Positions 8,950 to 11,412 of a DNA stretch of 64,000 bases are shown here, in pieces. The DNA lies in NCBI GenBank assembly GCA_963765145.1, contig CAVXVG010000018.1, positions 32,001 through 96,000 on the forward strand. The letters are read 5' to 3'. The position numbers and the translations under genes are program-made. The stretch is from Parachlamydiales bacterium. Lineage in GTDB: Bacteria; Chlamydiota; Chlamydiia; Chlamydiales; JAJFMK01. Within the stretch, counting starts at the first letter, position 1, and each line of letters starts with the position of its first letter. The notes under the pieces were generated by a model that saw only the letters and a program-made list of their open reading frames with translations, was not told where the DNA came from and made no database searches.

Positions 8950-10335
8950 TTACCTGTGCCTCACCTCAACAACGCATTTTATTTGAGCTACTTGGTCTAT
9001 TAACTGAGAAAGCTGATCTTGATTCACTGCGTCAAGATTGGCATCCCATTCATCTAAAAGAATGATCTTGGCTTCAACATGTTTATAAACCTCTTCTAGC
9101 TGCTGTTTCAGAAGTTCCCCTGTTGATTTTTCGATTTCTCCAAAAGAAAAATGAAGATGATTCTGGCTAGGCAAATAAAACGCATCCTCTTTGAAAATAC
9201 TCTTCAATTCAAGGAGAAGGGACGACTTTCCGCTCCCATTTTTTCCCCTAACAGTGATACGGCCAGGATGTTCGATGACTTCGACTACTGAATCTAAGGA
9301 AGCAGGGTGATCAATGGTGTTACTTCCATGGAGTTGAATCATTTGCCAGTCGATTCTAGGGGCATAAAAACTTCTTTCTTGCAATTCCTGAGAGTCAATA
9401 ACAGTCAGAATTGTAGTCACTCTCTTCTTTATCGCGCCGAATTGAGTGATTAAATAAAGGAAGTTATAGGTATAGCTAAGGATCAAAAACAGTCTAGGCA
9501 TAATGACTACGTAGGCTGCTAAGGCTATAGGTTCGCCTATATGATTAAACATTCCATATGCTATTACAATAAGGCTTGGAAAGAATGTTGCAAGAGAAAT
9601 GCCGATTGAAACAAGCTCGCGAAAAACAGTGGCAGCAACATTGTTTTCTACTGTTCGATCTATTCGATCGTCAGTGGTTTTCTTCCAAAAATTAAGATTA
9701 TAAACGTTTCCAAGAACAACATTGTCCCAGAATGATAGGATTGATTTTCCAAGCTCGATACGGCTTTTTTGGGCACGTTCGGCTAATTCACTGTGATGTC
9801 TATCTTGAATTTTGATTAATGCAAAACTTATAATCAAGCTGACTGCATAAGAGAAAATGAAAAGATAGTCTATCAGAAATGAGATGGTAATAACATTGAG
9901 AAGCGTGTTTAAAGCAGTTGATGTTAAGCCAAAGTAGTACTCAACTGCTTGATTAATTGTTTGAGAGCCTTCGTGATTTACGGTCGAAATAAACTCTTCT
10001 TTCTTTCGTTTATTGTTCCACAGGTGTGTGTTGTGTGAGTTGGCGGTTATGAAAAGATGGATGTATTTTTTTATAAGCCCCTGTTCCCATTTGATGAGGA
10101 AAACACACATTACTGCTGCAGGAAGATAGGGAAGAATGAGAGAGGAAAGATAGAGGAATAGGTTAGTTGAAAATGCACTTCCAGCCACAACATCATGAGA
10201 TAACCTTACAATCCACAGCGTAGAAGATGCAACGATTAATTGTTGCGCTAAAAGGGCAAGAAAACAAAAAAGAGCATTCCTGTTTTTTAGGCAGAAAGAA
10301 TACGGATGTTTCGAAGCTTTTAATGAAGCGCTCAT
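8950..10335 (-). CDS. ABC exporter-like protein (transmembrane domain + unusually short NBD)
   Basis: Multiple TM helices, then Walker A GKNGSGKS, degenerate signature KSTGE, Walker B IILLDEWD and terminal VEVRHR. ATG 10335 overlaps the upstream stop (ATGA). Confidence 0.8.
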   Translation of the reverse strand: MSASLKASKHPYSFCLKNRNALFCFLALLAQQLIVASSTLWIVRLSHDVVAGSAFSTNLFLYLSSLILPYLPAAVMCVFLIKWEQGLIKKYIHLFITANSHNTHLWNNKRKKEEFISTVNHEGSQTINQAVEYYFGLTSTALNTLLNVITISFLIDYLFIFSYAVSLIISFALIKIQDRHHSELAERAQKSRIELGKSILSFWDNVVLGNVYNLNFWKKTTDDRIDRTVENNVAATVFRELVSIGISLATFFPSLIVIAYGMFNHIGEPIALAAYVVIMPRLFLILSYTYNFLYLITQFGAIKKRVTTILTVIDSQELQERSFYAPRIDWQMIQLHGSNTIDHPASLDSVVEVIEHPGRITVRGKNGSGKSSLLLELKSIFKEDAFYLPSQNHLHFSFGEIEKSTGELLKQQLEEVYKHVEAKIILLDEWDANLDAVNQDQLSQLIDQVAQIKCVVEVRHR

Positions 10336-11129
10336 ACAACAGAAAGGTGTTGTGAAATGACGTTTTGACACATCGTAATTATTTTAAAAGATCTATCGTT
10401 TAGAATAATATCTTTATTGGGGTGAGATAGCAACCTGTCAATAGATGCTTGCGTGCTTACAATTAATCGATCACTAGCCGGATGAACTTGACTTATTGAA
10501 TGATCTACAAGATTTCTGGACCTCAGCAATAGCACTTCGGTGGCGACTACGATGCTATGAAATACTCTGTCTATAGGTCTGTTAGCTTGTAGTATAGCAG
10601 ACAAGCAAAAATTCTCTTTTTCGTACATTGTTTTTTGGTTTTTATAATGTGAAAATCTTAACTCGTCTAAAAACATTAAAGTATGGGTAAGTTCATGGAT
10701 GAAATATTCTAAATAATCACAAGCTTTCCACTCCTTGTGTGGGTTACACCAAATGACACCAATTGCAGCAGAGGTGGTCCCGCCAACTGCATATGTCGAT
10801 TCACCACAAAAGATCATGTTAACTACTAAGGTAAATAATGAGTGGAGATGCGGATCTAATTTTGAAAGGATCTCAAAATATTCTTGAGCTTTAGTTAAAG
10901 GACTCTCTAGTGGACAGGAGATGTCTATTAATTTTTCTACCCCTTCCTTGTTAAGGTTAACGTTAAAGCTGCTTGCAAGCGCTTCAGTCTTTTCAAGATC
11001 ATTAACAAACTCTATTTCCAAAGAATCACTTACGGGAACTCTTGGCTGAAGCGTAAAGAGAAAATCCTGATAATTGGCCTTGAGAGAGGCTCTATCAAGA
11101 AATGAATTTTTAGATTCGAAGTCTTTCAC
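10332..11129 (-). CDS. HExxH-motif protein, aKG-HExxH peptide beta-hydroxylase-like
   Basis: GGTTSAAIGVIW, YFIHELTHTLMF (HExxH) and the downstream RPIDRVFHS (RPxxxxxH) pattern seen in RiPP-associated aKG-HExxH enzymes. The frame stays open 19 codons upstream of the GTG, so the true start may be earlier. Confidence 0.72.
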   Translation of the reverse strand: MKDFESKNSFLDRASLKANYQDFLFTLQPRVPVSDSLEIEFVNDLEKTEALASSFNVNLNKEGVEKLIDISCPLESPLTKAQEYFEILSKLDPHLHSLFTLVVNMIFCGESTYAVGGTTSAAIGVIWCNPHKEWKACDYLEYFIHELTHTLMFLDELRFSHYKNQKTMYEKENFCLSAILQANRPIDRVFHSIVVATEVLLLRSRNLVDHSISQVHPASDRLIVSTQASIDRLLSHPNKDIILNDRSFKIITMCQNVISQHLSVV

Positions 11130-11205
11130 CGATAGAAGAACAATTGTCTCAAGGCAATTTTTACAGCCAATTAAGTGGTAAATAAGTCACCTGATGTCGA
11201 AAATG

Positions 11206-11412
11206 TTAAAGAGAAGATTTCTGACCATTTTTATACGTAATCATATTCCATCTGTTTGGTCCTCCGCCAATGCAAGTGTACGCATTTTCCTGAGAAGTTA
11301 AATTCTCTAAAGATGATTTCGTTGTATTGAAATCATTTTCACTGACCTCTTTCAAGATGCTGCCAAGGATTAAATCTAATGAATTAGAGCTTTGTGGTGT
11401 TGTAATAGACAT
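11206..11412 (-). CDS. Putative RiPP precursor peptide (68 aa)
   Basis: SD GAGGGA before ATG 11412. Acidic Ser/Asn-rich leader, then ...AYTCIGGGPNRWNMITYKNGQKSSL. First gene of the HExxH-ABC operon. Confidence 0.6.
   Translation of the reverse strand: MSITTPQSSNSLDLILGSILKEVSENDFNTTKSSLENLTSQENAYTCIGGGPNRWNMITYKNGQKSSL

Follow-up and report, generated by a model that had tools for sequence, protein, structure and literature searches.

A probable mobile RiPP cassette in a Parachlamydiales genome pairs a stand-alone aKG-HExxH enzyme with an unnamed precursor family and a compact ABC exporter

Enzymes of the α-ketoglutarate-dependent HExxH (aKG-HExxH) family act on peptides that are made by ribosomes and modified after translation (RiPPs), and two described systems are close to the one reported here. 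PflC and PosC are stand-alone enzymes that act, in a leader-dependent manner, on a linear precursor near its C-terminus; their clusters encode a transporter and neither a radical S-adenosylmethionine (rSAM) enzyme nor a protease, and PflC modifies its linear precursor when the two are co-expressed alone (PMC12636437; this and the other cited papers were available in part, and what is said of them is limited to those parts). ChlH, as the same paper states, is fused to a cyclophane-forming rSAM enzyme and needs a pre-installed cyclophane (PMC12636437). The locus analysed here lies in a 64,000-nucleotide stretch of DNA (‘the window’) from contig CAVXVG010000018.1 of a Parachlamydiales bacterium, whose metagenome-assembled genome (MAG) measures 2.68 Mb and is 84.8% complete. 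It is a minus-strand operon for a 68-residue peptide with its own Shine–Dalgarno sequence, a protein with the motifs HELTH and RPIDRVFH, and an ATP-binding cassette (ABC) protein whose ATG overlaps the stop codon of the HExxH gene as ATGA. The original prediction, drawn from the letters of the window alone, took this operon for a candidate RiPP system in which an HExxH enzyme may be the only maturase, and all three of its open reading frames (ORFs) are present as described. We conclude that the trio is real and mobile and probably forms an uncharacterised RiPP cassette that joins a known enzyme family to an unnamed precursor family, an unusual compact exporter and an overlooked ATT start codon.

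The middle gene product scores 60 bits against the TIGR04267 profile (IPR026337; cut-off 40 bits), which also matches all 40 aligned homologues at E ≤ 0.001. Its predicted metal ligands are H163, H167 and H209, plus E164, and these four residues are invariant in 44 sequences together with S195 and R202. The invariant positions align with the HExxH motif, the SPW..RP motif and the distal His of ChlH-like domains, S195 and R202–P203 falling on SPW..RP; the Ser and Arg have a role in α-ketoglutarate binding. An AlphaFold model of the enzyme (predicted local distance difference test (pLDDT) score 91.6), built on a 265-residue form from which the first 18 residues are absent, has ChlH (PDB 8s5f) as its top structural match (Z = 17.1, root-mean-square deviation 5.3 Å, 229 aligned residues) and SjiH (22ob) as its second (Z = 15.6, 3.9 Å, 220 residues), with unrelated structures following from Z = 7.5 downward in the same search. 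The ChlBH/ChlH structure is reportedly that of Morishita 2024. Foldseek agrees on ChlH (E = 4 × 10−7), and its best peptidase match is far weaker (E = 0.12). The modelled fold is of the ChlH type and closer to ChlH than to any peptidase, and the profile and structure searches, both proposed in the original prediction, bear out its assignment of the protein to the aKG-HExxH family. Only the fold search reached ChlH, as a search of PDB sequences with the enzyme profile returned nothing meaningful (best match a mevalonate kinase, E = 0.037). The same profile finds 977 clusters at 50% identity with E ≤ 0.001, 393 of them at E ≤ 10−30. HExxH is kept in 132 of 133 further cluster representatives, which are unfused, given their lengths of 230–350 residues.

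The operon stands where it was originally placed, and two of its start codons move. Homologous enzymes begin with M-x-x-L-x-G about 18 residues ahead of the GTG (11129) first taken as the start. The present frame stays open up to an ATT at 11183, two codons after a stop codon, and the 18 added codons (IYHLIGCKNCLETIVLLS) fit the M-x-x-L-x-G start. All five of the closest loci have (G/C)AGGTG, four bases and then ATT-TAY-CAY. From the homologue N-termini, the open frame and this conserved spacing, the enzyme very probably starts at the non-canonical ATT and has 283 residues, not the 265 counted from the GTG. The ABC protein has 461 residues from the ATG at 10335, as against 473 from a GTG at 10371 in the ORF finder list. 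A weak ATT start would hold the enzyme low relative to the peptide. Standard ORF calling misses this start, and cloning from the GTG would remove the helix predicted to bind the leader, which could yield a false negative.

The peptide consists of a helical, acidic leader (residues ~11–39), a variable linker (TCIGGGPNR), the motif W55-N-M57-I-T-Y-K61 and a short basic tail. Related peptides, scoring at least 12 bits with the family profile, lie directly upstream of the first HExxH gene in 43 of 55 distinct loci, 31 of which contributed to the training alignment and 12 of which did not. The present genome holds a single peptide above 12 bits, the next-best score being 10.4. In four of the 12 loci without a match the sequence ends within ~250 bases upstream; an insertion sequence interrupts one more, another is a fragment, five (L040, L049, L050, L051 and L052) show longer or divergent peptides by eye, and L034 has none. 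A helical leader and a hydrophobic-x-M-[IF]-[ATS]-aromatic-[DE/K] motif near the C-terminus are common to the family. In 39 peptides, registered on the motif so that the count of Met itself is circular, Met is followed by Ile or Phe (36), then Ala, Thr or Ser (39), then an aromatic residue or Leu (34), and then Asp or Glu (33) or Lys (5). No family model for these precursors was found in NCBIfam or Pfam: the present peptide matches neither collection, and none of 32 family peptides matches an NCBIfam precursor model. Four that were looked up in the protein collection carry the name ‘hypothetical protein’. An ESM Atlas search with the peptide gave no usable match, which shows neither novelty nor absence.

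Three finer suggestions about the peptide did not survive comparison across the family. The GGG that was proposed as a possible leader/core boundary is missing even from the other chlamydial peptides that share the motif, three in number, and just 8 of the 39 have GG or GA within the 25 residues ahead of Met. Asn, proposed as a possible substrate, precedes Met in 14. The core pattern of darobactin and dynobactin had also been loosely likened to this sequence, and Trp stands two residues before Met in only 4. Two loci show unusual precursor arrangements. In L052 (~120–600), two tandem leader-plus-motif units (...A-H-L-I-M-N-A-Y twice) precede two HExxH genes, and in L050 an ORF at 2047–2748 with about a dozen repeats of the type R-R-M-A-[ED]-L-G, possibly a multi-core precursor, lies between a methyltransferase gene and two HExxH genes.

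Prediction of the complex of enzyme, peptide and Fe gave a score of 0.83 in three runs, and the best of three controls reached 0.01. Of the solved complexes, 116 of 157 reach the score mark, and of the mismatched pairs 2 of 215, a calibration that holds only roughly here because our own alignments and an Fe ion were used. The runs share at least 75% of their contacts, with a partner pLDDT of 63–69. The most confident contacts join peptide residues 15–35 to enzyme residues 7–17, within the part that the ATT start adds, and 175–177; the N-terminal helix (7–19) is the predicted leader-binding site. The list of confident interface residues also includes 52–62 of the peptide and 130–139, H163, E164, H167 and H209 of the enzyme. 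The model supports binding, with the leader docked on the enzyme N-terminus and the motif in the iron cleft.

The ABC protein combines a type IV transmembrane domain (TMD) with a compact nucleotide-binding domain (NBD). Its motifs are Walker A (364), a signature-like STGE (404), the Walker B/D-loop sequence LLDEWDANLD (426) and the H-switch (459), at which the chain stops; most of the helical subdomain and the entire C-terminal tail are gone. The structural model (pLDDT 86.2) matches type IV exporters, among them the PCAT1 core, MsbA and McjD, and the protein is ~110 residues shorter than these. One wrong row in the alignment behind the model (L051:9931–10794, an HExxH protein) was dropped for the hidden Markov model tally. 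In a 28-row alignment, conservation is 90% or more for Walker A, Walker B with its catalytic Glu, D-loop and H-switch, which suggests a working ATPase. The Q-loop position and the signature lie 13 residues apart, where a canonical NBD in these data has 56. The originally noted lack of a C39 domain holds for this truncated exporter, and none was found in the 84.8%-complete genome either. The same short-NBD protein occurs in 30 of the 55 loci, so that homologous neighbourhoods hold both the conserved small ORF and the truncated ABC protein for which the original prediction had proposed to look. The ESM Atlas places it with clusters called ‘hypothetical protein’ at 0.98–0.99.

Further short-NBD proteins were seen in two places. 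At L063:968–3415 (G000:C2:125967–128414, minus strand) a second one follows a DUF6875 protein and an 84-residue ORF in an AT-rich dip; this is possibly another minimal cluster, in which case the compact exporter would serve further pathways. At L003:5622–7195 another stands, with a 56-residue radical SAM fragment (CxxxCxxC), just upstream of the cassette.

The 55 loci span Chlamydiota, Pseudomonadota, Actinomycetota, Bdellovibrionota, Bacteroidota and Myxococcota, and cultured carriers of the enzyme include Herbaspirillum, Advenella, Streptomyces and Kitasatospora. The system occurs in at least six phyla and is thus not special to intracellular bacteria, and RiPP-like clusters had been predicted in Chlamydiae before, by antiSMASH, with none characterised in that study (PMC9666466). 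In a quick version of the tree, two chlamydial clades (supports 100 and 98) sit in an unresolved fork, which does not establish separate acquisition. Pfam was run on 268 neighbour ORFs from 50 loci, chosen greedily at 100 residues or more, a procedure by which real genes in GC-rich loci may be displaced. Actinobacterial loci mostly carry a major facilitator superfamily transporter. Four loci (L018:8774–9853, L021:8812–9900, L047:8579–9640 and L051:8819–9940) have, directly after the HExxH gene, a protein of ~355–375 residues with no Pfam or NCBIfam match. Nonribosomal peptide synthetase (NRPS) genes adjoin the peptide and HExxH genes in L009 and L011 (Lysobacteraceae, with GNAT) and in L017 and L019 (Streptomyces); a RiPP–NRPS link, or a scaffold-peptide route to a modified amino acid, is possible at these loci. 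Broken copies also occur: the HExxH gene of L058 (G026) has an in-frame TAG, and in L029 a deletion joins the start of the peptide gene to the 3′ end of the HExxH gene.

The noted absence of a RiPP-type rSAM enzyme holds for the cluster and for homologous clusters but not for the genome. No RiPP-type rSAM was found in the window cluster or among the 268 neighbour ORFs, in which the three radical SAM proteins are RimO-like, MiaB-like and, 4 kb away, B12-dependent. Contig C34 of the same genome encodes a YhhB-type rSAM–HExxH fusion (NF041707, 469.7 bits; cut-off 445). It belongs to a complete triceptide-type cluster (L062:1069–5795, G000:C34, minus strand) with a YhhA-like precursor (E = 1.8 × 10−7), separate from the cassette peptide, and the 726-residue YhhB rSAM + HExxH protein, which is ChlBH-like; the cluster also has an arginase-like/UPF0489 protein and a YhhC-like 2-oxoglutarate oxygenase. 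Action of this enzyme on the cassette peptide in trans is unlikely, because 18 of 22 cluster-bearing genomes have no FxsB-type rSAM above cut-off; the three chlamydial ones, MAGs that may be incomplete, have no match at all.

The cassette has been inserted into this genome. In three relatives (G001 and G002 of the same genus, G003 of the same family) the gap between glgP and a DsbD_2-family gene is ~220–315 bp, 315 bp in G001, and here it is 3.7 kb; homology to G001 stops at ~8259 and picks up again at 11828 (Table 1). A 45-nt inverted repeat with a few further copies elsewhere in the genome brackets the cassette, which is AT-richer than its surroundings, as first noticed, with a GC content of 37.4% against 43.7% for the genome (lowest 1.4% of 5204 windows of the same size). 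The closest homologues come from Chlamydiae MAGs, which makes the host an environmental chlamydia, and the enzyme profile matches 9 of 400 scored genomes of the phylum, 8 of them at full length, the present genome included. Comparison with chlamydial homologues indicates purifying selection on all three genes: dN/dS is 0.08–0.13 for the enzyme, where computable, and 0.09 for the ABC gene, and for the peptide the proportion of synonymous differences (0.75–0.82) exceeds that of nonsynonymous ones (0.28–0.44). A promoter scan was uninformative, with 10 sites where 8.8 were expected, and a terminator was not detected. A perfect GC-rich hairpin with 17-bp arms (11595–11628) lies ~180 nt upstream of the peptide gene and adjoins a short repeat that recurs at 8464–8495. 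The insertion also carries an MntA-like nucleotidyltransferase gene, which no HEPN toxin ORF adjoins; it is probably a passenger, because no such gene was found among the neighbour ORFs of homologous clusters.

Table 1. Positions in the window of the cassette genes, their ribosome-binding sequences and the surrounding insertion
Feature	Position	Strand	Description and basis
Peptide gene	11206..11412	-	Precursor peptide, 68 residues; sequence and ORF calls
Shine–Dalgarno-like GAGGGA of peptide gene	11417..11422	-	5 nt before ATG; sequence
Shine–Dalgarno AGGTG of enzyme gene	11188..11192	-	4 nt before non-canonical, conserved ATT start (11183); L001, L002, L003 and L030 are arranged alike
aKG-HExxH (TIGR04267) oxygenase gene	10332..11183	-	Stand-alone, 283 residues; profile, fold, alignment, complex model
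ABC exporter gene	8950..10335	-	461 residues; alignment and structure model
MntA-like minimal nucleotidyltransferase gene	8501..8932	+	Inside insertion, convergent on ABC gene; profile matches
Insertion extent	8260..11827		Relative to same-genus genome G001; comparison with relatives
45-nt inverted repeat, left arm	8418..8462		82% complementary to 11693–11737
45-nt inverted repeat, right arm	11693..11737		Repeat scan

We estimate a probability of roughly two in three that this is a horizontally acquired minimal RiPP cassette that makes a modified, exported peptide. The analysis shows the operon and its gene order, the family membership of the enzyme, the co-occurrence of the genes and their conservation under selection. 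According to the model, the helical leader (11–39) would dock on the N-terminal helix of the enzyme and residues 174–178, and motif residues 52–62 (W-N-M-I-T-Y-K) would run along the GGTTS edge strand, over the metal site formed by His163, His167 and His209. As in other members of the family, Fe(II), α-ketoglutarate and O2 would then serve to oxidize one or more motif residues. β-Hydroxylation (+16 Da per site) appears the likeliest outcome, at somewhat below even odds among all outcomes; it would not depend on a cyclophane installed beforehand, and the locus encodes no further tailoring enzyme. A homodimer of the compact ABC protein would carry the product out of the cell, and the leader might be cut by a protease encoded elsewhere, cut by the HExxH protein itself, or kept. 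One may speculate that the product is a secreted signal or an antagonist directed toward co-infecting microbes or the host cell.

A number of observations weigh against this picture. The complex prediction names no residue above the iron, and hence neither a site nor a reaction. The motif has no conserved Asp, His, Gln or Pro, the kinds of residue hydroxylated by earlier enzymes, and the position after the aromatic residue is Asp in 25, Glu in 8 and Lys in 5 of the 39 peptides, with Lys in the present one. In the ABC protein the signature is STG[EQ], not the canonical LSGGQ, and the Q-loop Gln is not conserved, so that ATPase activity and export are predictions. No conserved protease was found among the clusters by the Pfam scan, and neither TldD nor C39 was found in the 84.8%-complete genome. 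Kin among the loci are not independent. Homologous clusters also carry extra enzymes (JmjC in four loci, NRPS in four, an adjacent GNAT in three), the ~355–375-residue protein of Bdellovibrionota-type clusters is a candidate tailoring enzyme in four loci, and ~14 loci have two or three HExxH paralogues. Because many clusters have such additions, action of the HExxH enzyme as sole maturase fits this locus and a large part of the family but does not extend to all of it.

The same enzyme could act by other chemistry. In an oxidative backbone cleavage like that of PflC, α-hydroxylation of the residue two after Met would free the [ATS]-aromatic-[DE] tail as a follower and leave a C-terminal amide (...x-M-I-NH2), and the enzyme would then both tailor and trim. 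Only small residues occupy this site (Ala in 31, Thr in 5 and Ser in 3 of 39), the clusters are without a conserved protease, and beyond the motif the tails range in length between 4 and 14 residues, which would suit a discarded piece. The A-[FY]-D triplet resembles the cyanobactin follower AYD. An 11-residue tail strongly conserved in four chlamydial peptides (K-x-G-x-K-S-S-L) argues instead that the tail is retained. PosC cuts at the Ala/Gly of ARMD and needs no terminal position; however, it oxidized Ser, Val and Gln side chains without cutting (PMC12636437), and the residue at the site is Thr here. We consider cleavage rather unlikely. A smaller probability attaches to the invariant methionine as the target, through oxidation of a side-chain C–H or of S, possibly followed by methylthio loss. 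Met57 is the sole invariant internal residue in a 32-row alignment and lies within the predicted active-site contacts, although its invariance is partly circular, the peptides having been registered partly on Met, and an invariant hydrophobic residue may merely anchor the peptide. Moreover, the peptides of L009, L011, L040 and L049 are without the Met motif and their related enzymes keep the same fold, and no precedent was found for the family, the sulfoxide-forming CoiH being unrelated (10.64898/2026.08.26.747419).

Just as improbable is a hydrolytic role, in which a metallopeptidase would stand in for C39 and merely remove the leader of an unmodified bacteriocin-like or signalling peptide. 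The HExxH site is zincin-like, no other protease is encoded in the cluster, and without the leader PflC can cleave peptide bonds hydrolytically, using Zn, Co or Fe (PMC12636437). Nevertheless, the fold and the Ser/Arg-Pro motif are those of the oxygenase ChlH, far ahead of any peptidase match, the two or three divergent HExxH paralogues that can accompany a single peptide fit poorly with one cut, and the model puts the C-terminal motif, not the leader junction, in the cleft. Least credible to us is a route as in ChlBH, where the C34 cyclophane rSAM would first cross-link the peptide in trans (W-N-M or Y-K-N) and the HExxH enzyme would follow. The genome does have such an rSAM, and the peptide has aromatic-X-X triplets. 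The C34 enzyme, however, comes with its own precursor and its own HExxH domain, the three chlamydial genomes with the same motif, which may be incomplete, give no FxsB-family match, and some family peptides stop one residue past the aromatic (...A-F-D stop), so that a third residue for the link is missing.

Beyond the minimal cassette, we entertain a bolder proposal that is doubtful as it stands: the loci would form a widespread, unnamed RiPP class made by an aKG-HExxH enzyme alone, with new motif chemistry (Met oxidation, oxidative amidating cleavage or a cross-link) plus trimming by that enzyme, and with an exporter whose type IV NBD is the smallest known and is devoid of the helical subdomain. 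If true, it would be a first characterised secreted RiPP in chlamydiae. The minimal cassette already offers a testable two-gene system with a defined precursor family, which would show how the enzyme acts as the only maturase. The compact NBD family could be used to test whether ABC exporters need the helical subdomain and Q-loop for coupling, and for Chlamydiota the locus offers a concrete candidate for a peptide that an intracellular symbiont would secrete.

Other free-standing aKG-HExxH β-hydroxylases occur in RiPP clusters, among them PesO, which hydroxylates Pro in the nitrilobacillins (PMC13060819), and BpmH/BipH of biphenomycin (PMC12257519, PMC12707348). In these systems the enzyme is an accessory to an MNIO, a nitrile synthetase or a B12-rSAM, with peptidases, whereas here it would be the only tailoring enzyme. 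The sites described so far are His, Asp, Phe, Gln and Pro; reactions are not predictable yet, and the family is not regarded as class-defining (PMC13060819). In the parts available of these papers and of two more that were compared (PMC12614342, PMC12912966), every published aKG-HExxH enzyme stands beside another tailoring enzyme. The idea of an undescribed, HExxH-only class can be kept in part: rSAM-independent enzymes had already been published, but beside partner enzymes (PMC12636437, PMC13060819), and what is new is a precursor family without a model whose HExxH enzyme is often the only tailoring gene. A literature search by title and abstract opening, which did not extend to papers behind a subscription (Morishita 2024, Xia 2025 and any on SjiH) or to preprint supplements, found nothing describing this precursor family, an HExxH-only cluster or the short NBD. 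The network of ~3058 IPR026337 proteins in the PflC paper (PMC12636437) probably holds members of this family that are not discussed there.

The cassette falls outside the triceptide, pfl/pos, darobactin and PCAT systems. Triceptides and cyclophanes (ChlBH, YhhAB, FxsB) have a cluster-encoded rSAM/SPASM enzyme and a named precursor family, both missing from this cluster, and the rSAM enzymes DarE and DynA of darobactin and dynobactin have no counterpart in it. Double-glycine export of the PCAT type does not fit a transporter without C39 and peptides that mostly have no GG or GA. Its half-transporter fold is shared with McjD and the PCAT1 core (PDB 4pl0, 4s0f; TM-score ~0.6 by query), as are Walker A/B, the D-loop and the H-switch; a full helical subdomain, the Q-loop Gln and LSGGQ set those exporters apart. 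The pfl system differs in its NHLP leader, poly-Gln-ARMD core, MNIO-nitroreductase and GNAT (PMC12636437). The cassette instead has a short unnamed leader, the x-M-[IF]-[ATS]-aromatic-[DE/K] motif and no second tailoring gene, with no MNIO-nitroreductase in the window cluster or among the Pfam matches of the 268 neighbour ORFs. From ChlH the enzyme differs in sequence (14% identity), in being an unfused protein and in carrying GGTTS and SAIL where ChlH has FSD and SPW. It shares with ChlH and SjiH the fold, HExxH with the distal His, and the Ser..Arg-Pro motif, and with PflC/PosC the stand-alone enzyme, the leader-dependent use of a linear precursor near its C-terminus (predicted here), the transporter, and a cluster free of rSAM and protease genes. 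It belongs to the aKG-HExxH family and would work in the manner of PflC/PosC and ChlH.

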